DNA from: Gammaproteobacteria bacterium
GTDB lineage: Bacteria > Pseudomonadota > Gammaproteobacteria > Arenicellales > JAJDZL01
Assembly (NCBI GenBank): GCA_022823625.1
Contig: JAJEHQ010000004.1
Span: forward strand, 8,851 to 72,850
Length of the DNA: 64,000 nucleotides
Direction: 5' to 3'
A program made the position numbers and the translations under genes. Below the pieces are notes generated by a model, which was not told the DNA's origin, made no database searches, and saw only the letters and a list, made by a program, of their open reading frames with translations. Positions 3,638-32,800 of the stretch are shown piece after piece; position 1 is the stretch's first letter, and the number at the start of each line of letters is the position of its first letter.

Positions 3638-3848
3638 ATTTTGCCCAAAAATGCCTTAAAAACGAAAACTATTTCCTTTCTGAGACCGGTTGTTTCTTTC
3701 GACTGTCTTTGCTTTCGTCCCTGCCCATTCTCAATGGTGGTGTTAAAAGCTTCTGGCGCGCAATCCATTTCGCTCTTGTATGCTCACCTTCGTTGCCTTG
3801 GCACTGCGACGGTTCCACTTGATCTTGTAACATAACCAGCCTCCCCCG

Positions 3849-8350: not shown

Positions 8351-8377
8351 CGGCAGTAACAAATCAAGGAAGTAACC

Positions 8378-9766
8378 ATGACGACCCTTTCCTCAACACA
8401 TCACACACCGCCACCGGCTAAGAATATTCCGATGCTGACCGGTGGATTGCCCTTGATTGGTCATCTGACGGAGTTTTTAAAGGATCCGGTTTCGATGTTG
8501 ATCCGTGGGTGGCATGAGCAGGGAGAGTTGTTTCAATTTCGTCTCGGTACGCGTAAATTCGTCTTGTTTGCCGGTCCCGAAGCGCATGATTGTTATTTCA
8601 GGGCGCCCCGAGATCACATGAGCGCTAAAGACGTCTATCAATTCACAGTACCAATTTTTGGTCGTGGTGTAGCCTACGACGTTTCCCCCGAACTGATGTC
8701 TGAGCAGTTGGGATTTCTCTACCCGGAACTGCGCGAATCCGCGTTACGCAAGTTTTCTGACATTATGTTTGAGGAGACAATGAATTTTGCTGATGCCATG
8801 GGCCAACAAGGAGAATTGGATTTACCACAGGCGATGAATCAGCTTACGATCAATATTGCCAGTCACTGCCTCATAGGTCCTGAGGTCCGTAATCAGTTGA
8901 ACGCTGGGTTTGCGGAAAGCTATCACGATTTGCAGAATGGAATCAACACCCTAGGCTTTTTCTTTCCTCATTTACCGACACCGGCGCATCGAAGTCGCGA
9001 TCGGGCACGGAAATCCATTTCCGAAATGTTTGAACGAATTGTCATGGAGCGACGGCGTACGGGTGCTAGGTCGGATGATTTCATGCAGAAAGTTATGGAA
9101 AGTCGTTACAAAGATGGCCGTGCGGTTACCGACGAAGAGATTACTGGAATTCTACTGACCGTATTGTTCGCGGGTCAGCACACTAGCGCAGTTCTTGCAA
9201 CCTGGACCTGTTTGGAACTTTTGAATTCGCCGTCGTACATTGACAAATTGCGGAACGAGATGCAGGAAATTTATGCAAATGAAAACGCTTCAAACATTGA
9301 CACCTTAAAGCAACAATCGTTGATGGAGTACACCATACGCGAAAACGAGCGACTACATCCGCCATTGATTTTGTTGATTCGAAAAGTACTCAAACCTGTG
9401 CAATTCGGTGATCATTCCGTACCCGCCGGCACCCTCGCCATGGTATCACCGGCAGCTGCTCACCGCTTGCCTCACCTATTCGCCAATCCAGACCGGTTCT
9501 ATCCGGAAAGATTTGCATCACCGAACCGCGAAGACAAACAACACCGCTACACTTTGATAGGTTTTGGCGGCGGTAATCACATGTGTATGGGGAAGCATTT
9601 TGCCTACCTGCAACTTAAAACGATCTGGACTGTACTGCTTGATCGCTTTGATTTTTTTACCGATCGAGACATTCCTGCCCCGAATTATGGCAGTTGGGTG
9701 ACAGGTCCCAAGGAGCCTTGTCGGGTTCGTTACCAACATCGCTCAAAATCTGGCATTTTCCATTGA
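8378..9766 (+). CDS. cyp51: Sterol 14-alpha-demethylase (CYP51)
   Basis: CYP51 signatures are present: YQFTVPIFGRGVAYDV, I-helix FAGQHTSA, and Cys loop FGGGNHMCMG. There is no fused ferredoxin domain (462 aa). Confidence 0.85.
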   Translation: MTTLSSTHHTPPPAKNIPMLTGGLPLIGHLTEFLKDPVSMLIRGWHEQGELFQFRLGTRKFVLFAGPEAHDCYFRAPRDHMSAKDVYQFTVPIFGRGVAYDVSPELMSEQLGFLYPELRESALRKFSDIMFEETMNFADAMGQQGELDLPQAMNQLTINIASHCLIGPEVRNQLNAGFAESYHDLQNGINTLGFFFPHLPTPAHRSRDRARKSISEMFERIVMERRRTGARSDDFMQKVMESRYKDGRAVTDEEITGILLTVLFAGQHTSAVLATWTCLELLNSPSYIDKLRNEMQEIYANENASNIDTLKQQSLMEYTIRENERLHPPLILLIRKVLKPVQFGDHSVPAGTLAMVSPAAAHRLPHLFANPDRFYPERFASPNREDKQHRYTLIGFGGGNHMCMGKHFAYLQLKTIWTVLLDRFDFFTDRDIPAPNYGSWVTGPKEPCRVRYQHRSKSGIFH

Positions 9767-12700
9767 GCAATAGTCTAGGATTCTATGACGTCGCCATCGT
9801 CGGCGCTGGTCCTGTCGGGAGCGTATGTGCCCTCGCCTACGCAAAAAAGGGCGCTCAAGTTGCTCTGTTCGAAGCGAATCCGAAGGCCTCCAAACGACTG
9901 GCCGGTGAGTGGTTGCATCCGCCGGCTCTTCGAATTCTAAACGAGGTCGGGGTTGAGATTGAATCGCAAATCGAAAGCGTCCCCGGCAACGGGTTTGCTG
10001 TGTTTCCGGAAGACGGCTCGGAACCGATTATACTTCCTTATGCGAACGGGTCCCGCGGTTTGGCATGTGAACATTCAGCACTCGTCTCGCTTCTTCATCA
10101 AAGTGTACAAAATGAGTCTAATATCGACTTTTTTGTTCCAGTTAAGGTTCTTGAAGCCACATCTGGTCAGATATCCATAGCTCTCAACGGAACCAATACT
10201 ACTGTCAACGCCAACCGAATTGTCGGTGCCGACGGTCGCGCATCAACTGTTCGCAAGTCACTGGGATTGCAGACTGGTCGGGTAACCTGCTCGCGTATGG
10301 TGGGGGTGATCGTTGAAGGGGAAGACTTGCAACTGAAGGGTTATGGCCATGTTCTGCTGGGTGGGCCAGGTCCGATTCTCATGTACCAATTGGGGCATGA
10401 TCGCGTCCGGATAATCGTCGATGTGCCGTTGAATCACTGGATTCCGCGTGACCGTATTGGGCTGTTGTCGGAAGCTTACGCCGATCGGCTACCTGAACAA
10501 CTCAGATCTGGATTTGTCGAAGCACTCCAGAACGGAAAATTTCATGCTGCAAACAATGAAATTAGAGCGCGAACGACTCATGGGAATTCAAACCTTGTTC
10601 TTGTAGGCGACGCAGTCGGAAATTACCATCCTATGACTGCGGTCGGCATGACTCTCGGTTTTGGTGATGCTTTCGATTTGGCGATGCACGAGAACTTTCG
10701 AGCATTTTCCTCCAAACGTCACTTGGCAACTCGCGGCCCTGAGTTACTGGCGATGGGTTTGTACGAGATTTTTGCTGACTATCGACGCGAATCAGCGGAA
10801 CTAAGGAGAGCGATTTATAGTAATTGGCGAAAACATCCTTTAGCCCGCAAAGGAACTGTAAGTCTACTTGCTTGTGAAAACACGTCGGTTGTTCATCTTT
10901 CTTTCACTGTTTCCACGATAGTCGCCCTTACGCTCCTTAGACAACTCCCGCGTAACTTTGAAAGACTACCCTGGAACCGTGCATTCAAAGTCATGAATGC
11001 TACCACTGGACGGTTGGTATGGCTGGTGCGCGGCATTATCGCCCAACGTAGAGACCGAAATAGAGGTGGCGAAAAAGACTTTCTTGCCCGTGATTCATTA
11101 GCCCGCGCATTCCTAATTTCCATTCCAACGAGATCCGATGATTCCAGGTCAATTCTCCAAAAGATTCATTCTCCCGATGTCGGTCCTGCCTTGGAGAGGG
11201 CTACAGAGCGTTTGTTGAGTCTCCAGAATGACAATGGCAGCTGGGAAGGAGAAATGGTTTGGTGTCCCATGCTCACCGCCCAATACGCTCTGCTACACTA
11301 CATTCTCGATCAGCCGCTGGAGCCACAACGACGACAACTTATCCTGCTTAGTTTCGAGAAGACTCGTCTTGAACAAGGGGTATGGGGTATGCACGAGCAT
11401 TCCTCACCTCATCTTTTCGTTACCACCCTTGTGTATGTCACATCGAGACTGCTTGGAGTCAGTCAAGATGATCCTTTGATCGAACCAGCGAGGCAGTTCC
11501 TGCAGGCAGAAGGGGTTGTCAATATTCCAAGTTGGGGCAAGTTTTGGCTAGCGCTGCTTAATCTCTACGACTGGGACGGAGTCCATGCTGTACTGCCAGA
11601 ATTGTGGCGACTGCCGCGTTGGTTTGTATTACATCCCTCTAAGTGGTATTGCCACACCAGGCTAATTTACATGGCTATGGCAACAGTTTACTCACAACGA
11701 TACCAAGCACCGATTACATCCACGATCACCTCTTTACGAGAAGAACTTTTTCCCCAAGGTTTTGACAAGGTGAATTTTTCCGAAGCCCGAAACAGTTTGC
11801 GAGAAGCTGATTTATTCTGCCGGCCGAGTCTGTGGCTTCGAGCCGGGTATTGCCTGACAAGAGCGTATGAAAAAGTTCATCTAAAGCGCCAAAGGACTCA
11901 AACTGTCGACAGACTGCTCAAACGAATCAAGTGGGAGTTGCAAACCACTAACCACACAAGCATATCTCCTGTCAGCGGTTTGCTCAATATTCTTGCCTTG
12001 TGGTTGCATGATCGGAATGACTCTGACATGTTGCAGGCGCTATCGCAGTTGGATGGTTGGATTTGGGAGGACGAGGAACAAGGTACGCGAGTTACCGGTG
12101 CAAGGAGTGCTTCGTGGGATACCGGGTTTGCGTTGCAGGCGTTGGCGAAGGTAGCTGAATTAGACAAGGTTCAGAACGCACTCACACATGGCTCTGAATT
12201 TTTGAGCCAAGAGCAAATTGTCAACAGTTTTCAGGGATATCAAGAGGCGAATCGTGCCGACCCTAAAGGTGGTTGGTGTTTTGCGGGAGGATGGCATGGC
12301 TGGCCGGTGTCCGACTGTACTGCAGAGGCTGCACTTGGAATTCTTGCTGTCCATGGCAAAAATTCTGACACCAGCACGTTGAGTGAAGCCGTACAGTTCA
12401 TGTTACGGAGCCAAAATCGAAATGGTGGTTTTGGCAGTTATGAATCAAAACGTTCAATGCTTGGTCTGGAGTGGCTTAATCCAGCTGAGATGTTTGGCGA
12501 ATCAATGACCGAGCACTCCTTTGTCGAATGCACTGCATCGTGCCTTAGCGCACTTAGTGAATTCAAGAGTCATTTCCCACAACTTGCAGACCAGACCGTA
12601 ACGAACGCCATTTCTAGAGGCGAAGCCTGGCTTCGCCGAACGCAAGCGAATGACGGATCATGGCGCGGCGTGTGGGGCGTTCAGTACATTTACGGCACCT

Positions 12701-13143
12701 TGTTTGGGATTCGGGGTTTGCTTGCGGCGGGAGCGAATCCTGGCGACCCGGCACTGCGACTGGCCTGCCATTGGCTGTTAGAGCGCCAACGCAATGATGG
12801 CGGTTGGGGAGAAAGTCACCGAGGCTGCTTCACTGGCCAATACATCGGGCTTGTGGAGAGTCAAGTTATCCAGACCGCGTGGGCTCTCATCGCACTGCTT
12901 GAGGCAGGTGACTCCAACTGGCACGCGATTTCAAATGGAATTGGCTATTTGCTCAACACGCAAAATGTGGATGGAACATGGCCAAAGCAAAATATGGTTG
13001 GTGTGTTTTTTCGCACTGCTCTGTTGGACTATGTACTGTATCGACAATACTTTCCTTTGCATGCATTGTGCCTCTACCAGCAACGACGTAAGATGCGTCA
13101 GTCGGTGAAAGTTGACACTGATTGCTGCACAGTAGCAGACTGA
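9763..13143 (+). CDS. Squalene monooxygenase - oxidosqualene cyclase fusion protein
   Basis: One uninterrupted frame. N-terminal FAD domain: YDVAIVGAGPVGS, VGADGRAS, GDAVGNYHPMTAVGMT. C-terminal cyclase: VSDCTAEA plus QW repeats (RSQNRNGGFGSY, RTQANDGSWRGVWG, ERQRNDGGWGES, NTQNVDGTWP). The start is uncertain. The TTG at 9763 overlaps the CYP51 TGA, and the track ORF begins at a TTG at 9694. Confidence 0.8.
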   Translation: MSNSLGFYDVAIVGAGPVGSVCALAYAKKGAQVALFEANPKASKRLAGEWLHPPALRILNEVGVEIESQIESVPGNGFAVFPEDGSEPIILPYANGSRGLACEHSALVSLLHQSVQNESNIDFFVPVKVLEATSGQISIALNGTNTTVNANRIVGADGRASTVRKSLGLQTGRVTCSRMVGVIVEGEDLQLKGYGHVLLGGPGPILMYQLGHDRVRIIVDVPLNHWIPRDRIGLLSEAYADRLPEQLRSGFVEALQNGKFHAANNEIRARTTHGNSNLVLVGDAVGNYHPMTAVGMTLGFGDAFDLAMHENFRAFSSKRHLATRGPELLAMGLYEIFADYRRESAELRRAIYSNWRKHPLARKGTVSLLACENTSVVHLSFTVSTIVALTLLRQLPRNFERLPWNRAFKVMNATTGRLVWLVRGIIAQRRDRNRGGEKDFLARDSLARAFLISIPTRSDDSRSILQKIHSPDVGPALERATERLLSLQNDNGSWEGEMVWCPMLTAQYALLHYILDQPLEPQRRQLILLSFEKTRLEQGVWGMHEHSSPHLFVTTLVYVTSRLLGVSQDDPLIEPARQFLQAEGVVNIPSWGKFWLALLNLYDWDGVHAVLPELWRLPRWFVLHPSKWYCHTRLIYMAMATVYSQRYQAPITSTITSLREELFPQGFDKVNFSEARNSLREADLFCRPSLWLRAGYCLTRAYEKVHLKRQRTQTVDRLLKRIKWELQTTNHTSISPVSGLLNILALWLHDRNDSDMLQALSQLDGWIWEDEEQGTRVTGARSASWDTGFALQALAKVAELDKVQNALTHGSEFLSQEQIVNSFQGYQEANRADPKGGWCFAGGWHGWPVSDCTAEAALGILAVHGKNSDTSTLSEAVQFMLRSQNRNGGFGSYESKRSMLGLEWLNPAEMFGESMTEHSFVECTASCLSALSEFKSHFPQLADQTVTNAISRGEAWLRRTQANDGSWRGVWGVQYIYGTLFGIRGLLAAGANPGDPALRLACHWLLERQRNDGGWGESHRGCFTGQYIGLVESQVIQTAWALIALLEAGDSNWHAISNGIGYLLNTQNVDGTWPKQNMVGVFFRTALLDYVLYRQYFPLHALCLYQQRRKMRQSVKVDTDCCTVAD

Positions 13144-13337: not shown

Positions 13338-14399
13338 TTAACTGTTTGAATGATGGGGTTTACGTGCCAAAAAGTAGTACATTGTCGTAAATGTACCGGT
13401 TTCACCACCTTTGACAATTGCATCAGCCGCTCTGTTCAAAATGGTGCTGACCATACGAGCGCCTTTAGGAAACAGTCGTACTCTCTCGCCGATTCTCAAC
13501 ACCAGGTTGGTAATCGCACGTCCCGCAGGTGTACGGGGAATACTCCGGAATGTGATGTCACGTCCTTGCAAGGGGCGATACCAAGGTATATCAGAGTTCG
13601 ATGCGCTAGCTAAGTCGCGCGCATCAAGGACCTCGAATCCAGCCTCGCACAATGCTTCATATACCCCTTTCGTGGTGGATATTCTGGGCAGCGCATTTCC
13701 AATCTCAATGTCTCTGACAATTCGCCTGTGTTCTGCATTTTGCGAATCAAACAATTCAGTTACGCACCAATCGTACCCGGCAAAACTCGCTCCTGGGCGA
13801 AGAACACGCAGTATTTCTCCAAACGCCGCTGTCTTGTCTGGCGCATGGGGCATGGACTCGATGGCGAAAGCACCATCAAAGCAATCATTGTCTTCAGGTA
13901 TCTTCATGTAATCGCCATGAATGAAGCGGCACAGCGACTTGATGTCCTCAGCCTGTGTAACTTCTTTGGCGCGCTTTATTTGGTACGCGTTGTTGTTAAG
14001 CCCTACAAATTTAGCCCCTGAATAGCGAGCCAATTCAGCCATTGGTCCCCCTACTCCGCACCCCACATCGAGAATATGCATTCCAGGTTTCAGGGACATT
14101 TGGTCCGCAATAAAATGCTGATGCCTCAGTAATGACGCCTTAAAACTCTCACCTCGTCGTCGAGGTGCAAAGTGAAATGAATTGCCCCAACCAAACTCGT
14201 AGAAGTCAGTTGCCAAGTTGTAGTAGTGGTTGACAAATTTCTGGTAGGTTTCTTTTCGATGTTCTTCGCCAGACTCATAGATTTTTTCATATTCATTGAC
14301 CACAGAATCGACTTCATCATCGGACAGGGCACCGAGCAGCCCAGAAGAATTCAGTTGTTTGTCAAATACCGATGGTAAATCTTTATTTTCTTCAGCCAA
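13338..14399 (-). CDS. Sterol C-24 methyltransferase (Erg6/SMT family), paralog A
   Basis: Region-I motif FYEFGWGNSFHFAP, SAM motif ILDVGCGVGGP, then NNNAYQI. TTG start. Confidence 0.85.
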   Translation of the reverse strand: MAEENKDLPSVFDKQLNSSGLLGALSDDEVDSVVNEYEKIYESGEEHRKETYQKFVNHYYNLATDFYEFGWGNSFHFAPRRRGESFKASLLRHQHFIADQMSLKPGMHILDVGCGVGGPMAELARYSGAKFVGLNNNAYQIKRAKEVTQAEDIKSLCRFIHGDYMKIPEDNDCFDGAFAIESMPHAPDKTAAFGEILRVLRPGASFAGYDWCVTELFDSQNAEHRRIVRDIEIGNALPRISTTKGVYEALCEAGFEVLDARDLASASNSDIPWYRPLQGRDITFRSIPRTPAGRAITNLVLRIGERVRLFPKGARMVSTILNRAADAIVKGGETGTFTTMYYFLARKPHHSNS

Positions 14400-14844: not shown

Positions 14845-15663
14845 CTAACGGATACGCTTTATCGCTGTTTGCGTAAAGTTGCTTTCATCAAGGTCAGTCT
14901 TAAACTCCAGATCCGACCAAAGCATGTCGGTGCTCTTACCGGTAAGATGGTTCACCATCATGATCTTGCTAGCTTGCCAGAAATTATTGAGATACTTTTC
15001 GTAGTTCTCAAGGGTCATCGTTTTTAGGTGTGCGTTTCTACGGTCAAAGAAATGAACCTGCTGGACACGAAGCTCTTCCCGGTCGTACCAAACCAGATGA
15101 CGCGAATAACCTGAATCGGCGCTGACTGGAACACGCTCCAATACTGCACACTGCAAATCGCCGCAGGGTTCGTCGCGCAAGAATTTATGCGTATATTTCT
15201 CAATTTCAACCGCGCCAAGATCCTCGTAAGCAAACTCACTACCCATAAAGGAACCTGACTGTTTTGACGAACTGATCCGTTTTACTCGTTTGAGCGCGGG
15301 TAGATAAAGCCATTGATCATCAGGCTCGAACTTATGGGCATGAACTAGAAAGGCTGTTCCTTTGACGTCACGCGGCTCATCAAACACAAACAGGGAACGG
15401 TCGCCATCCTCTTCAACTTCCAGCACTTTCAACCGCACTTTGCGCGAAGATTCCTTACCCTGTTTGTTTCGCAAAATCATGGTAAGACTTGCCGTGTAAT
15501 TAACAAATCCATACTGCTTTTGGCGGGCTTCCATTGCAATTTGAAACCCTATTTCCTCAGCATTCTGTGCACTCACGGTGAATGGCGTCATAACCAATGC
15601 AAATACAGCAAAATAGATGCTAAGTGATCCGAGGTTGTAATTACGATGAGAAAGACTTTGCAT
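14845..15663 (-). CDS. LolA-like outer-membrane lipoprotein-sorting family protein (periplasmic lipid carrier candidate)
   Basis: Signal peptide present. The core DGDRSLFVFDEPRDVKGTAFL...DDQWLYLPALKRVKRISSSKQSGSFMGSEFAYEDL matches the remembered LolA_like family, which usually partners MMPL/RND permeases. Confidence 0.65.
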   Translation of the reverse strand: MQSLSHRNYNLGSLSIYFAVFALVMTPFTVSAQNAEEIGFQIAMEARQKQYGFVNYTASLTMILRNKQGKESSRKVRLKVLEVEEDGDRSLFVFDEPRDVKGTAFLVHAHKFEPDDQWLYLPALKRVKRISSSKQSGSFMGSEFAYEDLGAVEIEKYTHKFLRDEPCGDLQCAVLERVPVSADSGYSRHLVWYDREELRVQQVHFFDRRNAHLKTMTLENYEKYLNNFWQASKIMMVNHLTGKSTDMLWSDLEFKTDLDESNFTQTAIKRIR

Positions 15664-16209: not shown

Positions 16210-17283
16210 TTAACTGTCTGGATTATGGGGTTTACGTACCAGGAAAAAATATAGTGGTGTAAATATTCCAGTCTCACCGGCTTCGATGAATGCATTCCCC
16301 GCCCTGCCCAGAAATGTGGTGATTTTGTGAGTCCCTTTCGGAACTCCCCGTACTTTCTCACCTATCCTTAACACCAATTTGGTGACTGCACGACCGGTAG
16401 GTGTGATTAGAATATTTCTAAGTGTGAAGTCTGTGAAGTGACGACCTTGAAAGATGTTATACCATGGTATATCGGAGCCAGATATGTGAGCAAGGTCACA
16501 CGTATCGAGAACTTCGAATCCAGCCTCGCAAAATGCTTCACAAATTTCTGCTGCGGTGGAAATTTTGGGTAGTGCGGTCCCAATCTCAATGTCTTCAATA
16601 ATCCGCGTGTGTTCAGCATTCTGCGAGTCAAAAAAGTCGGTTACACACCAATCGTGACCCGCAAAACAAGCCCCTGGACGCAATACACGAAAAACTTCCC
16701 GGAACGCTGCTGTTTTGTCTGGTGCATGCTGCATGGACTCGATGGCGATCGCGCCATCAAAGCAATCGTTGTCTTCGGGTATCTGCATGTAATCGCCATG
16801 AACAAAATCGCACAACGACCCAATATCCTCAGCTTGCGTGATTTGTCTTGCACGTTTAATTTGGTACGCGTTATTGTTAAGTCCCACAAAACTAGCCCCG
16901 GAATAGCGGGCCAATTCAGCCATTGGAGCTCCGATTCCACACCCTACATCGAGTATATGCATTCCCGGTTTCAGGGACATTTGGTCTGCAATAAAGTGCT
17001 GATATCGGAATTTCGACGACTTAAGACTCTCACCCAATCGTCGAGGTGCAAAATGAAAAGATCTGCCCCAGACGAACTCGAATAATCCAGTTACCAGGTC
17101 GTAATAATGATTGACATATCTCTGATATGTCTCTTTTCGATGTTCCTCGCCAGACTCATAAATTTGTTGGTATTCATTGGCCACGGAACTAATTTCATCC
17201 TTGGACAGGTCTCCGAACAAACTGGAAGAATTCATCGCTTTTTTTGGCGACCGTGACGATGGTTTATTTTGATCAGTAGCCAC
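16210..17283 (-). CDS. Sterol C-24 methyltransferase (Erg6/SMT family), paralog B
   Basis: Region I is LFEFVWGRSFHFAP (Phe where paralog A has Tyr), followed by ILDVGCGIGAP. The GTG start is preceded by GGGAGGAG. Confidence 0.85.
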   Translation of the reverse strand: MATDQNKPSSRSPKKAMNSSSLFGDLSKDEISSVANEYQQIYESGEEHRKETYQRYVNHYYDLVTGLFEFVWGRSFHFAPRRLGESLKSSKFRYQHFIADQMSLKPGMHILDVGCGIGAPMAELARYSGASFVGLNNNAYQIKRARQITQAEDIGSLCDFVHGDYMQIPEDNDCFDGAIAIESMQHAPDKTAAFREVFRVLRPGACFAGHDWCVTDFFDSQNAEHTRIIEDIEIGTALPKISTAAEICEAFCEAGFEVLDTCDLAHISGSDIPWYNIFQGRHFTDFTLRNILITPTGRAVTKLVLRIGEKVRGVPKGTHKITTFLGRAGNAFIEAGETGIFTPLYFFLVRKPHNPDS

Positions 17284-18876: not shown

Positions 18877-21207
18877 ATGAATGTTTATGAATTTTTCAAC
18901 TTGGTAGTCAGATACCGCTGGTTAACAATTTTTCTTTCGTTGCTGATTGTGGTGGTGTTCGCTGCGGGAGTTACGCGAATTGTTACTGTCGACGTAGATT
19001 TTCGAAATCACTTCAACAAAGATGATCCGCATTTGGTTAAGCTCGAAGAAATGGAGGATCTGTTCGCGCTTTCAGATAGCGCACTTGTAGTGATCGCACC
19101 CTCGACTGAAACCATTTTTACCCGTGAGGCACTTGCCGCAGTCGAACAGTTGACCGAACAGCTTTGGCTGACTCCGTATGTAGTTCGCGTCGATTCTTTA
19201 GCAAACTACTCACATAGCGAAGGACTCGAAGACGAACTAATCGTTGAACAGCTATTCGAAGATGCGATTTCGCTGAGTGACGAAGAGTTGGAGCGAATTC
19301 AGAGGATCGCACTCGATACGACGGATATCGCCGGTCGTTTTATTTCACGAGACGGTCGTCTCGGTGGATTTGTTATTAGTCTTGCACTTCCCGATAGTGA
19401 TCGAGAAGCAGCAAAAATTGAAGTTGTCGACTTTCTAAATGGCCTTGCTGTTGAAGCTCGCACCAGCAATCCGGAATTTGAATATCACCTCTATGGTGAT
19501 CTCTTTCTTAATCGCGCCGTCCGTGACGCGATCAATAACGATATAGCCGTTCTAGCACCAATTGCGTTTGGCACGATGCTGCTGGTCGCGTTAATAGTAC
19601 TTCGATCAATTTGGGGAATGATTGCGATCGTTGCCATGTTGATGACCGTGTTGCTTTCTGCGCTTGGGTTTACTGGTTGGACGGGTATGCCTTTGTTTGG
19701 AGAGAGTGGTGCAGCGTTGTTTGTATTAATGGCGATTGCCATCGCTCATTCGGTTCATGTAATTGAGGTAATGGCAGATGGTATGCGCTCAGGGATGTCA
19801 CGCAGGTCTGCCGCGATTCATTCCTTGCAACTCAACGCGTGGCCTGTATTTCTGACTTCACTAACCACCGCTATCGGTTTTCTCAGCTTGAATTTCTCGG
19901 AAATGCCCCCGTTTCGAGTCATGGGCAACATCGTCGCATTCGGAGCGATGTGCGCATTCGTATTTTCGGTCACACTTTTGCCTGCATTGTTGTCGATTAT
20001 GCCCATGAGAACTCGGGTTGCACCAGCAGGAAAACTATACTTTTTTGATCATCTGGCAAAATTTGTTGTTTCCAATAGTACCCGATTGTTGTGGACTTTT
20101 GTCATCTTAACAGCCGTACTCGTTGTCGGAATTACGCGCATCGAGCTCAACGAAAATCATTTGGAAATTCTAGATGAAAGTTACGAGTTTCGACGGTCCA
20201 CCGATTTCATAGTGGAAAATTTCTCAGCATTGGAGCCATTCGAGTACTCGCTTAATTCAGGTCGCGATAGCGGTGTTACTGATGTTGAGTTTCTGCGTAA
20301 TGTCGACGCTTTCGCACAGTGGCTTCGAATGCAGCCGGAAGTTTCTTACGTTGTGTCATTTACTGACGTTCTTAAGCGGCTGAATGAAAACCTGCATGGT
20401 GACGACCCCAATTTTTATAAGCTGCCGGAGGATTCTGAACTTGCCGCGCAATACTTGCTGCTTTACGAATTCTCTTTGCCAGTTGGACGCGATCTAAACA
20501 ATGTCATTGATGTCGAACGTTCCAAAACTCGCTTAACAGCTGTTATTAAAGGTTTGTCGATTGGTGAGAAGATTGAACTCGACGAACGTGCGAAATCCTG
20601 GCTGCATCAAAATGCTCCAGGTATGGCAACCGGAGCAACCGGAGTTACGATAGTCGGTGCATATTCGATTATGCGAAACATAGAAAGAATGCTGATCGGA
20701 ACTATCATTGCGATGTCCATAGTTTCGTTGCTACTGATATTTGTCTTTAGAAGTTTCCGGTTTGGTCTGATTAGCCTGATACCCAATTTCGTTCCAGCCA
20801 TCATGGCTATGGGTGTATGGGGATACGTCGTCGGACAGGTTGATATATCGGCTTCGGTTGTTACAGCAATTGCTTTTGGTATCATCGTGGACGATACGAT
20901 ACATCTTATGACAAAATACCTGAGAGAGCGGGCTAGCGGGAAGTCGCCTGAGGATGCTATCCGGCCGGTATTTCGAATAGTGGGCCGTCCGCTATTGACA
21001 ACAACAGCAATTTTTGCCTTGGGATTCATGGTGTTTGGAACGTCAGCACTGTCTGCCAATCAGACACTCGGTGTGTTGGTGGGACTAACTGTTGTAATTG
21101 CGCTGGTGGCGGATTTATTGCTGTTTCCGCCGTTGCTAATGACCTTGGACAAAACCAGGGGTAAACTGAGTGATTTTAAGAAAGGATCTTCTCATCACGC
21201 ACGCTAG
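18877..21207 (+). CDS. RND-superfamily MMPL/HpnN-type permease (candidate sterol exporter)
   Basis: 776 aa with the 1+5 / 1+5 TM pattern and two large soluble loops typical of RND permeases. The sterol role is inferred from context only. Confidence 0.7.
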   Translation: MNVYEFFNLVVRYRWLTIFLSLLIVVVFAAGVTRIVTVDVDFRNHFNKDDPHLVKLEEMEDLFALSDSALVVIAPSTETIFTREALAAVEQLTEQLWLTPYVVRVDSLANYSHSEGLEDELIVEQLFEDAISLSDEELERIQRIALDTTDIAGRFISRDGRLGGFVISLALPDSDREAAKIEVVDFLNGLAVEARTSNPEFEYHLYGDLFLNRAVRDAINNDIAVLAPIAFGTMLLVALIVLRSIWGMIAIVAMLMTVLLSALGFTGWTGMPLFGESGAALFVLMAIAIAHSVHVIEVMADGMRSGMSRRSAAIHSLQLNAWPVFLTSLTTAIGFLSLNFSEMPPFRVMGNIVAFGAMCAFVFSVTLLPALLSIMPMRTRVAPAGKLYFFDHLAKFVVSNSTRLLWTFVILTAVLVVGITRIELNENHLEILDESYEFRRSTDFIVENFSALEPFEYSLNSGRDSGVTDVEFLRNVDAFAQWLRMQPEVSYVVSFTDVLKRLNENLHGDDPNFYKLPEDSELAAQYLLLYEFSLPVGRDLNNVIDVERSKTRLTAVIKGLSIGEKIELDERAKSWLHQNAPGMATGATGVTIVGAYSIMRNIERMLIGTIIAMSIVSLLLIFVFRSFRFGLISLIPNFVPAIMAMGVWGYVVGQVDISASVVTAIAFGIIVDDTIHLMTKYLRERASGKSPEDAIRPVFRIVGRPLLTTTAIFALGFMVFGTSALSANQTLGVLVGLTVVIALVADLLLFPPLLMTLDKTRGKLSDFKKGSSHHAR

Positions 21208-21407
21208 CAAAGCTTAAGCGCAATTTGCAGAATCTCGCCGCGCTTACATCGAAATTACACATTCGATTTGGAGATGAGGTGCACACTTTAAAAGTGCTGA
21301 TTACTACACCCTGATTCATTTCAAGAGCAACTGTGAGGTTTCGAGAGTCAAAGCTCTCTTTATTGTCAAATTGAGACTTGGCCTCGACCGAATGACAACC
21401 TCTTCAC

Positions 21408-23417
21408 TCAGGCAGGAAAATCCTTCCATCGTTCTGCAATATGAATTTTCAGTTTTTTACTGACTGACAGGGAGGAATAGGCGTTGAATTTAAACTTGAA
21501 ATTCGGATCTGACAATTCGAGCCTGAAGTGATGTGCGATCATCAACAGATTGACAGCCATATGCTTCACCACCCAGCGTACCCCGAGGCACATATGGGTG
21601 CCCAGTCCAACTGGAGCAAATGAAGTACTGCGATGCGCGTTGGTGGGCGGAAGATAACGGTCAATGTCAAATTTGAATGGTTCTGGGAACGCCTCTTCCA
21701 TAAAATGTGCGGCCCCCATTACAATGAAAACATGTTCTCCAACGGGTAACTCGATGTCATCGACCAACCACGAATTTGACACGTTTCGAGGAATTAAATA
21801 GACGACAGGGTAAATTCGCTGACACTCAAGCACAAAGCGGTGAGTAACGTCGAAATCCGATAAATCTAAGGTCTCTGGGTCTGGATCGCCATTGGAAAAA
21901 ATGGCATCGGCTTCGCTGCGAATTTTTGCATACAAGTCGGGTTGTGTTACCATGGCGTAGATGGCGCAACCCATGAGATCGGAAAAGTACTGGCTTGCAA
22001 GCATCGGCGACGAGAGCATGAACCTCAAATTCGCCTCGGGGAAGAATTGCGGATCGCTGGCATACAAAGAAAGTGTTTCATCAGCAAGTTCCCAAGGTTG
22101 ACCAACCCGTTGTTCAGGCGTATGGTTCTGCTGAACTCTTTTGACAGCATCATCAACAGCTTTGCGACCGCGTTTCATTCGCGAAGTATTGAACAACAAT
22201 CTTGTCACAAACTTGGGTGGATTGAAAACGATGTGGATCATTTGAACCGCGTTCTTCCACTTCATTACATCCTCAAAAATATCGTTCGTTTCCGTACTCG
22301 TAAGAAGTGGCATGATTTGAGCATTAGATAATTTCCGTGAAGTTTCATACACTTGCACATGTGAACCCACTTTCCAATGACTCTTCATGTGGTTACGAAT
22401 CATATCGAAAACAGAATTCATCTCACTCTCAAGTTTCCTGACCGAATAGGCTCGCTGCAAAGCTCTACGCAAAGTGAAGTGATCGGATCCGTCTAGACTG
22501 ACTAGCACCCCGATACCGCCGTATTCATTTTCCACACCTTGATAAAACTTCTTCGATGTCAGGTACTGGCGCCCATTACGATGAACCCAGCGGTTGATAT
22601 CGATACCGGCAAGGAAAGTCATTGGCTGAGTTAAAGGTATGTTAATCCGAAAAACCGAACCATACTCTTTGGCGAAATCTGCAAGCATCGCAGGTATATT
22701 ACCGTTCCAAACGTGTCGATTCGATAGAATCTTAAGCAGTGGAACGGATGGTATTTTTTTCTTGAAACTGGGACGCTGCAGTAACGGAACAGCAATAGAA
22801 TCTTTAACAGCAGCAGCAATTGAGCGACCGATCAGTTCCATCTGACAGATTTGCTCAATTCGTTTTTCTGCTTTTTCATCAATTTCAAAGATGAAGTGAA
22901 ACAAACCACACGAATTAACAAGGCCGACAATGATGATGTCTCTCGGGAGGGGAATTGTGTTAGAAAAAATAGCATCGCTAATTCGCGACTTGATTAACTG
23001 ACTAGCTGTATGTTCTTGAGAGTATCCATGCCACGTCGCGGGAGCCAGCGTCCAGAACTCGCCTTCATGATGCTTCAGAATTTCCAATTTAACCAGACGG
23101 TCAAGCGTGGAATCAATTATGTCCTCCGCGTGGACAGCGAGTCGTTCGATCCAGTAGCGGGCATTGTGAGGAGTCTTGTCCTTCGAGATTGCCTTCAGAC
23201 AAAGATCTAAAACTGGATCACCAGTTTCTGTCGGGTCCAATACAAAAAGTGATTCAATGTCTGTATCAATTCGCGACTGTAGGGAAAGGTCTGCGAGTGC
23301 GGCTCCAATGACAGCGCAATTTAGGGACCAGCCGGGTACTTGATAAAAATAACCGGTCTGCTCGTTTAAAAGCATTAAAACCAGCTCTTCAGGCAAATTC
23401 AAACGTCGGGTCGCCAT
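21408..23417 (-). CDS. GPP34/GOLPH3-like domain - cytochrome P450 fusion
   Basis: Residues 1-~200 show the GPP34 pattern (LPEELVLMLLNEQTG, IGAALADLSLQSRIDTD, VLDPTETGDPVLD, PRDIIIVGLVNSCGLF). Residues ~215-669 are a full P450, with ExxR at ECQR and Cys loop FAPVGLGTHMCLG. Confidence 0.75.
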   Translation of the reverse strand: MATRRLNLPEELVLMLLNEQTGYFYQVPGWSLNCAVIGAALADLSLQSRIDTDIESLFVLDPTETGDPVLDLCLKAISKDKTPHNARYWIERLAVHAEDIIDSTLDRLVKLEILKHHEGEFWTLAPATWHGYSQEHTASQLIKSRISDAIFSNTIPLPRDIIIVGLVNSCGLFHFIFEIDEKAEKRIEQICQMELIGRSIAAAVKDSIAVPLLQRPSFKKKIPSVPLLKILSNRHVWNGNIPAMLADFAKEYGSVFRINIPLTQPMTFLAGIDINRWVHRNGRQYLTSKKFYQGVENEYGGIGVLVSLDGSDHFTLRRALQRAYSVRKLESEMNSVFDMIRNHMKSHWKVGSHVQVYETSRKLSNAQIMPLLTSTETNDIFEDVMKWKNAVQMIHIVFNPPKFVTRLLFNTSRMKRGRKAVDDAVKRVQQNHTPEQRVGQPWELADETLSLYASDPQFFPEANLRFMLSSPMLASQYFSDLMGCAIYAMVTQPDLYAKIRSEADAIFSNGDPDPETLDLSDFDVTHRFVLECQRIYPVVYLIPRNVSNSWLVDDIELPVGEHVFIVMGAAHFMEEAFPEPFKFDIDRYLPPTNAHRSTSFAPVGLGTHMCLGVRWVVKHMAVNLLMIAHHFRLELSDPNFKFKFNAYSSLSVSKKLKIHIAERWKDFPA

Positions 23418-23711
23418 AGTGTTACAATTGGTCCATGATCAATTTGTAGGTGGTTGATTTCACTCTGAAAAGTAACTATGTAGAGTAATTCAAATTATAC
23501 TCCTATTGGATTACTCGTAACTTATTCAAATTCAAAGCATTACCATAATTTCAATCTTTGAGTTCCTACTAGATTTGATACTTGCAGGGTATCGAGAACC
23601 AAAATTTACTGATCGTTTCATTGATCGATATAGTTTGCTTCATTTATTCTAAAGTGACGGCGTAAAAGCACTTGTATTTTGTTTGCAATCCAAAAAAAGC
23701 AGCGCGGTCAA

Positions 23712-24581
23712 CTATAATTCAATAATCATTGAAACCGGTTTGTGATCGGACCCCACTTCTTTCGAATGAATTTTTACGGACTTGATTCGATCGCTCAGCG
23801 AGTAGCGAACAAAACAATAGTCCATCCGCACATCTTTCCCTCGTCGCTCCGCTGTCGTTCCAGACATTTCGGAATTACCCGCCACCTTCCAGGCATCGAC
23901 AAAGCCCTCCGGATTAATCACGCGTCCACCATAATCAGATTTGATTCCGACAACTCGGGCGTACTCTTCGGAATCTGGTGTAAAGTTAAAGTCGCCCATC
24001 AAAATTGATTCGCGAGGCAGCGTAGATACATCAGCCTGCCCGGCAAAGTCGGTATTTGCAGATTTACCGGCAATGGGTCCACCCTCTCTCACCGCACGTT
24101 GATCAACATCAAGCAGTCTCTCAATCTGTTGCAATCTCACTTCGGTACTAATGTGAGTAAGGTGAACCGAATAAACTCTGATCCGATGACCGTTGCATTC
24201 GATAACCCCCTCCAGTGCACTTCTCTGGATACTGAGTGGACCAACTGAGGCGAATTTGGGTAGTAGATGATTTCTGGAGGTGATGATTGGACTTCGCGCA
24301 AGCAGCATGTTGCCAAACTGCTGACGCCGATTGATCACTTCTCCATCGGGAAGTATATCGTCCGCAGAAATATCAACACCAGCACCATAGACCCAGTGGT
24401 GATATTTGAGCCGCTTGGTAAGTTCCCTGACCTGATCAACATTGCCTGATCGAGGAAAAAATCGCTCCACCTCCTGAAGGGCGATAACGTCAGCGCTTTC
24501 CACAGCATGCGCAATGCGATCCAGGTCGTAAACTCCATCCAACCCGCGTCCGAACTGAATGTTGTACGTCATAAACTTCAT
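23712..24581 (-). CDS. Endonuclease/exonuclease/phosphatase (EEP) family protein
   Basis: MKFMTYNIQFG...VIALQEV...GSDHKPV are the hallmark EEP motifs. Confidence 0.75.
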   Translation of the reverse strand: MKFMTYNIQFGRGLDGVYDLDRIAHAVESADVIALQEVERFFPRSGNVDQVRELTKRLKYHHWVYGAGVDISADDILPDGEVINRRQQFGNMLLARSPIITSRNHLLPKFASVGPLSIQRSALEGVIECNGHRIRVYSVHLTHISTEVRLQQIERLLDVDQRAVREGGPIAGKSANTDFAGQADVSTLPRESILMGDFNFTPDSEEYARVVGIKSDYGGRVINPEGFVDAWKVAGNSEMSGTTAERRGKDVRMDYCFVRYSLSDRIKSVKIHSKEVGSDHKPVSMIIEL

Positions 24582-29991: not shown

Positions 29992-30443
29992 TCAGCCTTG
30001 CTCCAAATCAATCGCTGATCGCATCCACATCCTACTGATGCTATGGCACAAAAAGGTATCACGAATTAGCCTGCTTTCATCTGTTCCGATGAATCGAAGT
30101 CGCTTTGCTCGCCCTATTGTAAGGATGAATAACACTTCATCGGAATGATGCCACGTTTGACCGGATGTATCATGCAAAGGAGCAGGTAGTTTGCCGTCGG
30201 GTTTCATGACTCTCCAGTTCGGTTGACCTTCTGAATTCACACCATGACAAACCGCACAGTGCTGCATACACACTATGTGTCCGAGTTGGATTAACTGTGA
30301 ATCGGTTGGGTCTGCAAAACATTTTCACCGAAGTCAGGGAAAGCAATTGTAAGAAAAGTGGTTATCGTTGCTGCTGACAGAATGCGGATACACCCATGCA
30401 CCAAAAATGCTGAAATATTTGGATAAGGTTCTCGGATATTCAT
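29992..30443 (-). pseudogene. Small membrane-anchored c-type cytochrome, apparently frameshifted
   Basis: A 50-codon ORF (30294-30443, hydrophobic N-terminus) ends at a TAA at 30291-30293. The haem domain (CAVCHG...LPAPLHDTSGQTWHHSDEVLF) continues in a different frame at 29992-30273. Confidence 0.45.
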
Positions 30444-30492
30444 GGGTTGTTTAAGTTCGTCGTGCCAAAATTTCCTGGACTAGCTCATCAAT

Positions 30493-31353
30493 TCATTCTG
30501 ACAATCGCTCATTTTTCTGATTCGTCAGAGAAGTTTCTTTGTATGTATTCACTAGAAACTTGAAATTGTTAGGTAAACTCAGTAAAAATAGATAGTTATC
30601 CATGGCTCTGTTTTGAATGTGACTTCCCTGCTCCCATCTGCATAGCGAAGCTGCCCCAATACCTGTAATTTTGGAAAATTCACGGATCGTTTGATTCAGA
30701 TTCAGTCGAATTTGACGAACTTCTTTGGGTGTCATGATTTTATGACCTCCAACAGTCTTTATTTTTTGGGGCGCAAATGTCTTTTGTTCAGATTGCAACC
30801 AATCAATTGATTGGTAGTGTAATCGTGCAATGGGGACCGGTTCGAAATTCGGAATTTTGTCTGTGATATTGACTACAGGTTTGTTCGTGTTGTCAATTCG
30901 ATTACGAATAGCTTGTAAATTATTTAATACTCTGAGCAAGCGAAGATAAAAGTCCATCGCTTTGTTTTGTATCAATGTACCGTTTTCCCATCTGCTGATT
31001 GAAGCCTGACCAATTCCAGTGGTTTTTGAGAATTCTTTTATAGTCAAGCCTGCACTTTTTCTCAATGTGCGTACTTCGTTTGGTGTGAACACCTGTAAAA
31101 ATTTGCAAATAGCATCGTGACACAACCGGTCACCTTCATGGTCCGTATACATGAAGTTACACTCTGTGCATTTATATACAGGTACCTCGGCGTGCAATTC
31201 TGTTTGCTTTTCCAAAGTTCCATAGTTGAAAAACTTAGTTTCATGTCTGGTTTGAACTTTGTCAGAACCGCACAATGCACATTGTTTATTTCGGGCAATA
31301 GTCCAATTTTTTGGTTTCTTGTCGGTATTCTTCATAAGTAAGATTCCAATCAA
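30493..31353 (-). CDS. MqsA-like antitoxin: zinc ribbon plus two tandem XRE-type HTH modules
   Basis: CALCGS...x37...CTECNF zinc ribbon, then two homologous HTH units (TPNEVRTLRKSAGLTIKEFSKTTGIGQASISRWENG and TPKEVRQIRLNLNQTIREFSKITGIGAASLCRWEQG). Confidence 0.6.
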   Translation of the reverse strand: MIGILLMKNTDKKPKNWTIARNKQCALCGSDKVQTRHETKFFNYGTLEKQTELHAEVPVYKCTECNFMYTDHEGDRLCHDAICKFLQVFTPNEVRTLRKSAGLTIKEFSKTTGIGQASISRWENGTLIQNKAMDFYLRLLRVLNNLQAIRNRIDNTNKPVVNITDKIPNFEPVPIARLHYQSIDWLQSEQKTFAPQKIKTVGGHKIMTPKEVRQIRLNLNQTIREFSKITGIGAASLCRWEQGSHIQNRAMDNYLFLLSLPNNFKFLVNTYKETSLTNQKNERLSE

Positions 31354-31715
31354 TTCGTTGAATAGTGAAAACTGCGACCAATCAAACCCATCCTTCCATT
31401 GGCAATTTCAAGTTTGATGTAAATATCGCGATTGACCGAATCCCCTGGCACGATCATCACGTAGCCAGTTGCACCTTCTGGATGGTCCAGAACAATCTCT
31501 TCAATCGGATGTCCCCTTCTAACAAGCTCTTTGATAAATTCCCAGCATTCTGTAGGCGAAAACACCGCTCCGGTTTCAGGATTCTCAACATTGTCAGGAT
31601 GCCATTTTGTAGGACGTTCTGATGTAAACTCCGTGAAAACCTGACCTTGTTTCAACAAATCCAAAATAATGAATCGCACGAAAGGATTAGCATACCTGCG
31701 CTCCCTCATTTGCAA
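31350..31715 (-). CDS. Putative toxin partner (MqsR-like position and C-terminus)
   Basis: 121 aa with a 4-nt overlap onto the antitoxin start. Toxin-first order as in mqsRA. The C-terminus IYIKLEIANGRMGLIGRSFH resembles the MqsR end VYLKITVIHDVLIVSFKEK. The family assignment is weak. Confidence 0.4.
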   Translation of the reverse strand: MQMRERRYANPFVRFIILDLLKQGQVFTEFTSERPTKWHPDNVENPETGAVFSPTECWEFIKELVRRGHPIEEIVLDHPEGATGYVMIVPGDSVNRDIYIKLEIANGRMGLIGRSFHYSTN

Positions 31716-31777
31716 TCCTTTTTCATATCATATGATAACATAAATCAAAATTCAATCTAATATGTGGTGATTATGAA

Positions 31778-32800
31778 TTGTGTGGCGTTTTAGCCAATGT
31801 GTTGCTACAATCTGATTCTTACTTTGACTACATTCACAATCTTTATTCAAGCATGATTCAACGAGAAATTGCCTTCAACAACGATTCTAGCGTCGAAGAT
31901 GAACTCATGCGTAGAGAAGCCTTCAATCATGTGCAGACTTTGTTTGAGACTCATGGATGCCTGACATCTCAGTTGATTCTGGCAGGTTTCTCATACAAAG
32001 GAGAGCGGATAGCCCTTGTCAACCCTGGTCAAGGAATTCATAAACCAAAGCAGATGCGTCATCTGCTTTCAATTAGAACCGTTTACCCTCGGAGGCGCGC
32101 TTATTATGATGATCAAACGCAAGCGTGTGCACAGTTTTACGCAGGGAGTAACTCTGTTGACTATTCTTTCATGGGTACCGACCCAAACGCACGACAGAAT
32201 CTTCATCTTCGAGAGGTATATAGAAACAAGATTCCAATCATCTATTTTCTAGGATTTAATCGGAGTCACTACATTCCAATTTTTCCAACCTTTATTACTG
32301 ACTGGGACCCACGAACACTTAAGGTCAGACTGGAATTCGCTGTTCCCAACCAGCACTCTGTTATTGTATTTCCTGAAGCGGGCGAACGTCGCTATGCGAT
32401 GCGCATACATAAACAAAGACTTCACCAAGCTTCTTTTCGAGACGTTCTAATCAAAGCCTACAGCAGTCAATGTGCCATTACAAGATTGGCTGTTCCACAA
32501 CTTCTGGATGCTGCGCACATTGTTCCTGACACAGACGAAATGTTAGGTCAGCCCATTGTTTCGAACGGTCTGCTCCTCTCGAAAACCCACCACGCCGCCT
32601 TCGATCAAAACCTGATTGGAATTGATGCAGATTACTGCATGCATGTGTCGGAACAATTTCTCCAACAAAACGATGGCCCTATGCTTGAATCTCTGAAGCA
32701 ACTCAACGGTAACAAAATTATCCTTCCCAGACGCAGAGAAAATTATCCTTCCCGAGATCGACTAGCACAACGTTTTGATAAGTTTAAATCCGCAGCATAA
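31778..32800 (+). CDS. HNH endonuclease with an N-terminal non-catalytic (possibly modified-DNA reader) domain
   Basis: C-terminal HNH_2-like core CAITRLAVPQLLDAAHIVP...NGLLLSKTHHAAFDQNLIGID. The N-terminal ~200 aa show a pattern (GIHKPK..LSIRT...YDD...Y.F.GTDPN...N..LR....IPIIYF.G) seen in Type IV-like HNH nucleases. The start is uncertain, with an alternative ATG at 31853. Confidence 0.6.
   Translation: MCGVLANVLLQSDSYFDYIHNLYSSMIQREIAFNNDSSVEDELMRREAFNHVQTLFETHGCLTSQLILAGFSYKGERIALVNPGQGIHKPKQMRHLLSIRTVYPRRRAYYDDQTQACAQFYAGSNSVDYSFMGTDPNARQNLHLREVYRNKIPIIYFLGFNRSHYIPIFPTFITDWDPRTLKVRLEFAVPNQHSVIVFPEAGERRYAMRIHKQRLHQASFRDVLIKAYSSQCAITRLAVPQLLDAAHIVPDTDEMLGQPIVSNGLLLSKTHHAAFDQNLIGIDADYCMHVSEQFLQQNDGPMLESLKQLNGNKIILPRRRENYPSRDRLAQRFDKFKSAA

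Follow-up and report, generated by a model that had tools for sequence, protein, structure and literature searches.

What does a domain with the fold of the Golgi adaptor GOLPH3 do at the head of a bacterial cytochrome P450? The question is raised by a 64-kb stretch of an Arenicellales genome (contig JAJEHQ010000004.1, positions 8,851 to 72,850; hereafter the window), in which a complete gene at 21408..23417 on the minus strand encodes a GPP34 domain and a P450 in one protein of 669 residues. An earlier note on this DNA had believed the architecture to be undescribed, but such proteins were published in January 2025 as GPP34_L (PMC11706023), and the window protein is a member of that family. 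The authors of that study proposed that GPP34 proteins are secreted effectors that bind phosphatidylinositol 4-phosphate (PI4P) and thereby stop phagosome maturation (Ferreira et al. 2025, Microbiome 13:4, PMC11706023). We found that the genes surrounding the fusion, as far as their sequences can be read, favour sterol chemistry over this published idea of host manipulation. With modest confidence, we therefore lean towards a cytoplasmic sterol-tailoring P450 (a hydroxylase or desaturase) whose GOLPH3-fold domain would serve as an adaptor that does not bind PI4P. That the fusion takes part in tailoring sterols or closely related triterpenoids seems fairly probable to us, while the adaptor mechanism for the GPP34 domain is put forward more tentatively.

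A genuine and widespread gene fusion

The gene is a single uninterrupted reading frame from ATG to stop, and both Pfam profiles match its product above their curated cut-offs, which bears out the earlier note's proposal that the two domains are joined in one protein. GPP34 (PF05719) covers aa 8-205 (22803..23396, minus strand) at near full length, with profile positions 1-199 of 201 matched at E 6e-32 and 111.8 bits against a cut-off of 29.1. The p450 profile (PF00067) covers aa 231-653 (21459..22727, minus strand) at E 6.4e-34 and 117.9 bits (cut-off 22.8), and a basic inter-domain linker of aa 206-230, ending in LLQRPSFKKKIPSVPLLKI, lies between the two (22728..22802, minus strand). The GPP34 motifs on which the note had relied (LPEELVLMLLNE, GAALADLSL..RIDTD, VLDPTETGDPVLD and PLPRDIIIVGLVNSCGLF) were all located in the frame, as were the P450 motifs ECQR and FAPVGLGTHMCLG, with the codon for Cys610 lying exactly at 21588..21590. 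A promoter and terminator scan of 21000..24000 returned sites no more numerous than in shuffled sequence.

The same architecture of ~675 aa recurs far beyond the window. Among 5.8 billion proteins searched there were 949 relatives, and the best 120 clusters all carry both Pfam domains (52-90% identity, length 663-709 aa). When representatives at 50% identity were searched exhaustively with HMMER, 243 clusters were found with E up to 1e-30, including many full-length fusions at just 24-37% identity, and a scan of one genome per species identified at least 574 loci that encode the fusion. Since the junction is kept in at least 120 clusters and all of these loci, and since the linker prolines P211 and P223 are invariant, we ruled out a sequencing or assembly artefact; the GPP34-P450 fusion is confirmed as a genuine, widespread bacterial gene. 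The closest relatives are proteins from Arenicellales metagenome-assembled genomes (MAGs), which are 90-92% identical; the nearest genome match is an Arenicellales locus (L001) at 92%.

Both halves of the protein are under equal constraint, with a mean pairwise identity of 0.70 in the GPP34 domain and 0.69 in the P450 domain. Identity of the fusion protein between phyla (0.59-0.78) is about the same as within a phylum, a pattern that fits horizontal spread of the gene. One Arenicellales MAG (L002, 10001..21942) contains two GPP34-P450 paralogues 6 kb apart, 48% identical over 98% of the query, and behind each of them lies a separate convergent MMPL gene.

These proteins correspond closely to the published family, which was defined by an N-terminal GPP34 and a C-terminal P450 and counted at 656 members (Ferreira et al. 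2025, PMC11706023). The two-domain order and the length agree, the window protein is 52-90% identical to its relatives, no structural difference is apparent, and the taxa match (Chloroflexota, Latescibacterota, Nitrospirota, Gemmatimonadota, Proteobacteria and others). GPP34_L was found in sponge symbionts alone and was expressed in Aplysina aerophoba, while GPP34 genes were present in 16 of 20 bacterial phyla; GPP34-only genes often lay within five genes of a P450 gene, and rare GPP34-Rieske and GPP34-ABC-ATPase fusions were also described (PMC11706023). The isolate prefixes of many of our related loci (SB06xx, APA, RHO and COS) match sponge-microbiome bin names; two bins named in that paper are APA_bin_87, which came from A. 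aerophoba, and one of the SB0661 series, which came from I. ramosa (PMC11706023). The same study presents no sterol-gene neighbourhood and no residue-level analysis, and a text search of it returned zero mentions of sterol, lipid, methyltransferase or MMPL.

A GOLPH3 fold that has lost the PI4P arginines

An AlphaFold2 model of the N-terminal 215 residues (predicted local distance difference test score, pLDDT, 88.3; predicted template modelling score, pTM, 0.87) has the GOLPH3/Vps74 fold with its projecting beta-hairpin, as the earlier note would lead one to expect. In the PDB this model matches human GOLPH3 and yeast Vps74 alone (E 2.9e-8 to 5.7e-5, with the next match at E 0.7), and its template modelling (TM) scores against 9qpq are 0.77/0.68. 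In GOLPH3, PI4P is held by W81, R90, R171 and R174, and altering this pocket, as tested with the W81A/R90A and R171A/R174A double mutants, abolishes phosphoinositide binding (Wood et al. 2009, PMC2806290). The fusion keeps one of these four residues, the invariant W30 (23328..23330, minus strand), which aligns with W81. When the family profile was aligned with GOLPH3 9qpq, R90 was replaced by V/I/A37, R171 by E98 and R174 by I101. The register of the second helix is uncertain (alignment E 4e-4), and a manual alternative gives D102 and L105 at these positions, but neither register is basic.

The GPP34 domain is also strongly acidic, with a mean net charge of -18.5 (range -27 to -10) across 121 aligned family members, and the linker (aa 206-232) averages +4.8. 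At such a charge the domain is ill-suited to binding anionic lipids. With the three PI4P arginines replaced as well, the lipid-binding head that the earlier note had envisaged is not supported in the form of a GOLPH3-like phosphoinositide binder. The domain shares its fold, the pocket tryptophan, a hydrophobic projecting hairpin and an acidic character with GOLPH3 and Vps74 (3kn1, 9qpq and 2zih), but it belongs to a bacterial protein and lacks both R90/R171/R174 and the N-terminal COPI-binding tail. In addition, GOLPH3 binds its client enzymes in trans, whereas the fusion domain is covalently joined to an enzyme.

The beta-hairpin LKHHEGEFWTL (aa 114-124; 23046..23078, minus strand) forms strands at 114-117 and 121-124 in both of our models. 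H117, G119, W122 and T123 are invariant, position 121 is F or Y, and the element is the counterpart of the hairpin that inserts into membranes and oligomerises in GOLPH3/Vps74. In a COPI-GOLPH3 structure, this hairpin is inserted into the bilayer, and Golgi enzymes are captured by their short basic tails on an electronegative face (bioRxiv 10.1101/2025.06.26.661719). At the N-terminus of the fusion we found neither a signal peptide nor a transmembrane segment; the stretch of greatest hydrophobicity there is the core helix, which is buried in the fold. We considered a twin-arginine (Tat) signal in the N-terminal 'TRR' and ruled it out, as this sequence is clade-specific and lies inside the first conserved helix of the fold.

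Several cysteines and histidines of the GPP34 domain are conserved. C34 (codon 23316..23318), C170 (22908..22910) and H117 (23067..23069) are invariant, and C191 (22845..22847) and H25 are nearly so. At C34, the one Cys/His position that was compared, the aligned GOLPH3 residue is a serine. We also considered whether the protein might be a P450 fused to its redox partner, in the manner of BM3 or the CYP51-ferredoxin protein, but there was no Pfam match to a redox domain, and the fused domain matches GPP34 alone.

The window encodes a second GPP34 protein (2419..3768, minus strand), in which the GPP34 domain is followed by ~5 transmembrane helices with conserved histidines. It belongs to a conserved family of ~393 aa, its true length is ~394 aa, and its next-closest relatives are the GPP34-P450 fusions. 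This protein is part of a three-gene module (168..3768, minus strand) whose other two members are a multihaem cytochrome c (~490-510 aa) and a Tll0287-like protein. The module is also present in Acidiferrobacterales, Defluviicoccus and gammaproteobacterial MAGs, for example in L082 (10001..13285) and in L081 (10001..12689), where the Tll0287-like gene lies apart at 19478..19804. We rejected the second GPP34 protein as an additional sterol linkage, since it has its own trio and no sterol genes lie nearby in L081 or L082. By its predicted topology, the protein shows a bacterial GPP34 domain at the bacterium's own membrane, and the module hints at haem or redox proteins of the membrane as partners for GPP34 domains in bacteria.

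A P450 domain with a non-canonical I-helix

The full-length model (pLDDT 83.5, pTM 0.69) contains a P450 fold, with a Foldseek TM score of ~0.8 to BM3 and to Methylococcus CYP51. A family-profile search placed Methylococcus CYP51 (6mi0/6mcw, E 2.7e-24) closest among solved structures; taxadiene hydroxylase, CYP102, CYP46A1 and CYP90B1 came next, with terpenoid and steroid P450s among them. Identity to named P450 families is 14-20%, and the fusion P450 is, judged by these values, a member of no named family.

The features that define a cytochrome P450 are present: the profile match, the FxxGxxxCxG loop, ExxR and a PERF-type arginine. The haem-thiolate loop FAPVGLGTHMCLG with Cys610 lies at 21582..21620 (minus strand) and reads PYGLGTHxCLG in the family and PVGLGTHMCLG in the window, with V603 replacing the family Y/F. 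The K-helix ExxR is ECQR (21816..21827, minus strand). Among 121 sequences, C610, G604, G606, H608 and G612 of the loop are invariant, as are E531 and R534 of the K-helix and the PERF-type R587. On the other hand, alignment of these sequences with CYP51 revealed a non-canonical I-helix motif, ASQYFSD (aa 474-480; 21978..21998, minus strand). Where CYP51 has A-G-(H/Q)-H-T-S, the fusion family has A-S-x-Y-(L/F)-(G/S)-D, with an invariant Y477 at the acid position, L/F478 in place of the usual Thr and an invariant D480.

The fusion is not the 14-demethylase of the adjacent sterol cluster. A genuine CYP51 is encoded at 8378..9766 (plus strand; E ~1e-102 to Methylococcus CYP51 6mcw), the fusion P450 is 20% identical to it, and the AG(Q/H)HTS signature is replaced by ASQYFS. 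CYP51 proteins, including the Methylococcus CYP51-ferredoxin fusion (6mcw), share the overall fold and also occur in bacterial sterol clusters, but in our protein the fused domain is not a redox partner. A parallel in layout is offered by eukaryotic microsomal P450s, whose topology of N-terminal anchor, linker and catalytic domain is well established. Like them, the fusion has an N-terminal putative targeting element and a basic, proline-containing linker ahead of the catalytic domain. Unlike them, its putative targeting element is a soluble acidic domain of 200 residues with no transmembrane helix, and its association with the membrane is putative.

The fusion gene lies at the edge of a sterol locus

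The fusion gene borders a bacterial sterol locus that is complete. The core synthesis operon (5021..13143, plus strand) encodes, in order, an SdmB-like short-chain dehydrogenase/reductase (5021..6157), the SdmA Rieske 4-methylsterol oxygenase (6154..7257; 407 bits to NF052579), an ERG24-type C14 reductase (7223..8350), the genuine CYP51 and a squalene epoxidase-oxidosqualene cyclase fusion (SE-OSC) of 1149 aa (9694..13143). Two sterol methyltransferase (SMT) paralogues with Sterol_MT_C domains lie beyond it on the minus strand (13338..14399 and 16210..17283), on either side of a gene for a LolA-like periplasmic lipid-carrier protein (14845..15663, minus strand). An HpnN-like MMPL/HAE3 transporter of the resistance-nodulation-division (RND) type, with a weak match to BstA (18877..21207, plus strand), is encoded convergently to the fusion gene, from which it is separated by 200 bp. 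The SE-OSC fusion is also encoded in L003, L009, L022, L030, L053 and L079, which represent four higher taxa, at 58-65% identity. In the window, calling TTG as its start produces a 73-bp overlap with the end of CYP51; the actual start therefore probably lies further downstream.

In its content (ERG24, CYP51, cyclase, SdmA/B and SMTs), this operon matches the horizontally transferred sterol clusters that have been published from sponge symbionts (Kelly et al. 2022, PMC9531527). The MMPL transporter and periplasmic carrier parallel the logic of BstA and BstB in the BstABC system, in which an inner-membrane RND protein is paired with a periplasmic one (Zhai et al. 2024, PMC10942540), although the similarity of the window MMPL to BstA is weak (~30 bits against a cut-off of 1400). 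Text searches of these two papers and of a study of symbiont SMTs (PMC10070321) found no GPP34-P450, KshA-type Rieske or transporter as parts of the clusters, and we found no link between GPP34 and bacterial sterols in the literature searched. Within that literature, the linkage of the fusion to SMTs, steroid-type Rieske enzymes, sterol-sensing domain (SSD)-type transporters and sterol clusters appears to be unreported, as does the residue-level argument against PI4P binding.

Sterol-type neighbours are conserved across phyla

The neighbourhood was compared in the 80 best loci, taken with 10 kb on each side, after their neighbouring open reading frames (ORFs) had been clustered de novo. The fusions in this set are 51-92% identical relatives from at least seven phyla and include Chloroflexota/Dehalococcoidia, Latescibacterota, Nitrospirales, Gamma- and Alphaproteobacteria, Verrucomicrobiota, Gemmatimonadota, Poriferihabitaceae and Rhodothermaceae; 46 of the 80 are Chloroflexota and are not independent of one another. 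Besides the fusion, just four families recur in at least 34 loci, and all four are of sterol or lipid type. Rieske oxygenases are present in 54 loci and are mostly KshA-type: the representative carries KshA_C, and its nearest solved structure is KshA, the 3-ketosteroid 9alpha-hydroxylase (E 2e-29). This single-linkage cluster also holds SdmA-type copies from the synthesis clusters. Sterol C24-methyltransferases, recognised by Sterol_MT_C and the signatures FGWGESLHF, IDVGCGIGGP and YAIESTCHAP, occur in 53 loci. In 45 of 78 loci they directly adjoin the fusion; 35 of these have the SMT on the opposite strand (with a gap of typically ~50 bp) and 10 have it on the same strand. The other two families are an HpnN-like MMPL transporter that matches the Sterol-sensing and Patched SSD profiles (51 loci) and an amine-oxidase-like flavin adenine dinucleotide (FAD) protein (34 loci).

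A strictly sterol-type neighbour was found in 67 of the 80 loci, and the link to sterol genes persists through rearrangement in Chloroflexota, Latescibacterota, Nitrospirales, Gamma- and Alphaproteobacteria, Verrucomicrobiota and Gemmatimonadota. In six loci, a complete cluster (fused SE-OSC, CYP51 and ERG24, mostly with SdmA/B) lies 1.4-8.5 kb from the fusion. These come from four higher taxa, namely Arenicellales (L003), Nitrospirales (L009, L022 and L079), Opitutales (L030) and Poriferihabitaceae (L053), and a further locus (L007) has ERG24 and SdmA/B near the fusion. The sterol connection drawn in the earlier note is thus upheld by the SMTs, steroid-type Rieske enzymes, HpnN/BstA-like MMPL proteins and sterol clusters that are conserved nearby across phyla, but it does not extend to the remaining 13 loci.

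The partner for envelope transport varies with envelope type. Proteobacteria have a LolA-like protein and an unknown 449-aa protein, Chloroflexota have an MFS transporter and an LppX/LprG-type lipoprotein, and Latescibacterota have AcrB/MFP/OMF. The LolA-like gene was found in nine proteobacterial and Poriferihabitaceae loci and is next to the fusion in most of them. A typical Chloroflexota cassette (L004-L074; for example L008, 12048..19098) reads FAD-oxidoreductase (plus), Rieske (minus), fusion (plus), SMT (minus), MMPL-SSD (minus), Rieske (minus), MFS (minus) and LppX/LprG-like lipoprotein (minus), and so contains two paralogous Rieske genes as well as a pair for lipid export that resembles LprG/P55. 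Within 10 kb of the fusion, the Chloroflexota loci have no cyclase.

Three deeper-branching GPP34-P450 subfamilies, each represented by one locus, have other neighbours. In L084 (10001..19591), the setting is one of sulfotransferase and PAPS synthesis genes: beside the fusion lie two sulfotransferases, an adenosine 5'-phosphosulfate (APS) kinase/CysN, a PAPS_reduct-family protein and MFS transporters. The gene of L083 (10001..14637) lies beside an EcKL/APH-type small-molecule kinase and an MFS transporter, and nothing informative is near the third. These contexts hint at pathways in which a product is hydroxylated and then sulfated or phosphorylated. Sulfated sterols are known sponge metabolites. 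A tailoring enzyme that hydroxylates its substrate, with decoration and export of the product to follow, would be in keeping with these contexts as well. They show, too, that the sterol link belongs to the subfamily of the window protein.

Proposed role and alternatives

We propose that the fusion belongs to a horizontally spread cassette of sponge symbionts, which would comprise the SMT, KshA-type Rieske, FAD oxidoreductase, HpnN/BstA-like MMPL protein, envelope lipid carriers and the fusion itself, and which in the Arenicellales genome would be attached to a complete lanosterol-type sterol pathway. The fusion P450 may act in concert with the SMT, the Rieske oxygenase and the FAD enzyme encoded beside it and feed an MMPL export route. 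Its GPP34 domain may have kept two surfaces of GOLPH3, a hydrophobic hairpin that would contact or enter the membrane and an acidic face that would capture a partner. Together with the basic linker, these could keep the P450 on the cytoplasmic side of the membrane of the bacterium itself, the site at which sterols would be made, methylated and passed to the transporter. We infer an intracellular location because the fusion has no signal peptide or transmembrane segment, because a P450 requires haem and reducing equivalents, and because the sister GPP34 domain is predicted to be membrane-tethered.

Several observations weigh against this proposal, whose sterol tailoring is read from sequence and genomic context. 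A domain charge of ~-18 should be repelled by anionic bacterial membranes, and docking of the acidic GPP34 face on a basic C-terminal tail of the MMPL protein found no support, as these tails average -1.3 net charge. The acid-alcohol pair is absent from the I-helix, and ordinary O2 activation is accordingly not assured. Some active P450s lack this pair, and we note its absence as a reason to expect possibly unusual chemistry rather than as a sign of inactivity. No conserved ferredoxin, reductase or other small ORF was found near the fusion gene in the neighbourhoods of the 80 loci. In the window, the gene lies outside the sterol operon: it runs towards the MMPL gene, and the SMT genes are 4-8 kb away. 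Nor is the context uniform: 13 of the 80 loci are without a sterol-type neighbour, and the sterol link is not confirmed in the three loci of the deeper-branching subfamilies. Finally, the family is absent from free-living bacteria, including known sterol producers (Ferreira et al., PMC11706023), from which it follows that GPP34_L is not part of core sterol synthesis.

Two other explanations survive about equally well, and we regard each as improbable. The first is that the substrate is not a sterol and that the neighbours form a general lipid-modification island, acting on a terpenoid, hopanoid, fatty-acyl lipid or host secondary metabolite. Such a substrate would suit the divergent subfamilies, which lie beside sulfotransferase or kinase genes and MFS transporters and not beside SMTs. 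It would also suit a P450 that is 14-18% identical to named families and whose top Foldseek matches include the fatty-acid hydroxylase BM3, and a transporter of the MMPL/HAE3 type with HpnN matches, since members of this type also carry hopanoids and other lipids. However, the neighbouring methyltransferases have the sterol-specific C-terminal domain and the SMT signature regions, and symbiont SMTs of the same kind methylate desmosterol in vitro (Brown et al. 2023, PMC10070321). The Rieske partner, moreover, is closest to a steroid hydroxylase, and clusters of OSC, CYP51, ERG24 and SdmAB are directly adjacent in four higher taxa.

The second explanation accepts a sterol enzyme but gives the GPP34 domain another task, either binding the sterol itself in the former PI4P pocket for capture or delivery, or solely oligomerising through the hairpin, as Vps74 does in forming tetramers. 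The pocket positions are now W30, V/I/A37, E98, I101, D102 and L105, a hydrophobic and acidic set that is highly conserved. Constraint on the domain is as strong as on the catalytic domain, and the hairpin makes dimer and tetramer contacts in GOLPH3/Vps74 (PMC2806290). On the other hand, the full-length model, at a pTM of 0.69, does not demonstrate that the two domains share a fixed interface. To our knowledge, no GOLPH3-family protein binds sterols.

The least likely of the three, and in our view a poor prospect, is the secreted effector, which would bind host PI4P and block phagosome maturation with the role of the P450 left open (Ferreira et al. 2025). The confinement of the family to sponge (and coral) symbionts of many phyla, its absence from free-living relatives, its expression in situ and its true GOLPH3 fold all speak for such an effector, and since effectors of type III, IV and VI secretion carry no classical signal peptide, the lack of one is compatible with export. 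Against it stand the non-basic residues aligned to R90, R171 and R174 in either register, the net charge of -10 to -27, the anchoring of the sister GPP34 domain in the bacterial membrane, and conserved neighbours that are cytoplasmic or inner-membrane sterol enzymes and lipid exporters rather than secretion systems. A haem enzyme that depends on bacterial redox partners would also be odd cargo for secretion. Altogether, our data disfavour the secreted effector, and a sterol-tailoring P450 with an adaptor domain remains the reading that we prefer.

Other features of the window

An Exo_endo_phos (EEP) gene at 23712..24581 (minus strand) shares the strand of the fusion and is situated upstream of it, at a distance of 294 bp. 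Sphingomyelinases and inositol phosphatases are among the members of the EEP superfamily. This gene is probably outside the fusion-gene system, since L001, the closest relative, is the one other locus that has it. Further along, 30001..32800 has low GC (0.405) and carries an MqsA-like/HTH gene and an HNH_2 endonuclease gene, and a DDE transposase is encoded at 39539..41266; these may be mobile or defence elements.

Implications

The GPP34 and GPP34-P450 genes (2025) and the horizontally transferred sterol clusters and SMTs (2022, 2023) entered the literature as separate features enriched in sponge symbionts; our evidence indicates that the two are physically linked. If our proposal is true, a supposed family of host-manipulating effectors would be part of sterol chemistry. 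More speculatively, GPP34_L, SMT, KshA-type Rieske, FAD oxidoreductase and SSD-type MMPL may together form a mobile cassette for sterol remodelling and trafficking, and this cassette may be the real content of the 'GPP34 symbiosis signature' that spans many phyla of sponge symbionts. Symbionts would then modify their own or their host's sterols, possibly feeding the side-chain-alkylated sponge sterols at issue in the 24-isopropylcholestane debate, and the GOLPH3 fold would be a bacterial module for P450 targeting or substrate handling that predates its Golgi role.

For the fields of sponge symbiosis, bacterial sterols and sterane biomarkers, the finding offers a small, testable gene set. A cassette of four or five genes could be expressed and would indicate which sterols sponge symbionts make or remodel, and it bears on whether sponges or bacteria produce the sterols that are used as the oldest animal biomarkers. 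A bacterial, enzyme-fused GOLPH3 fold without PI4P recognition may likewise inform the evolution of the Golgi adaptor.

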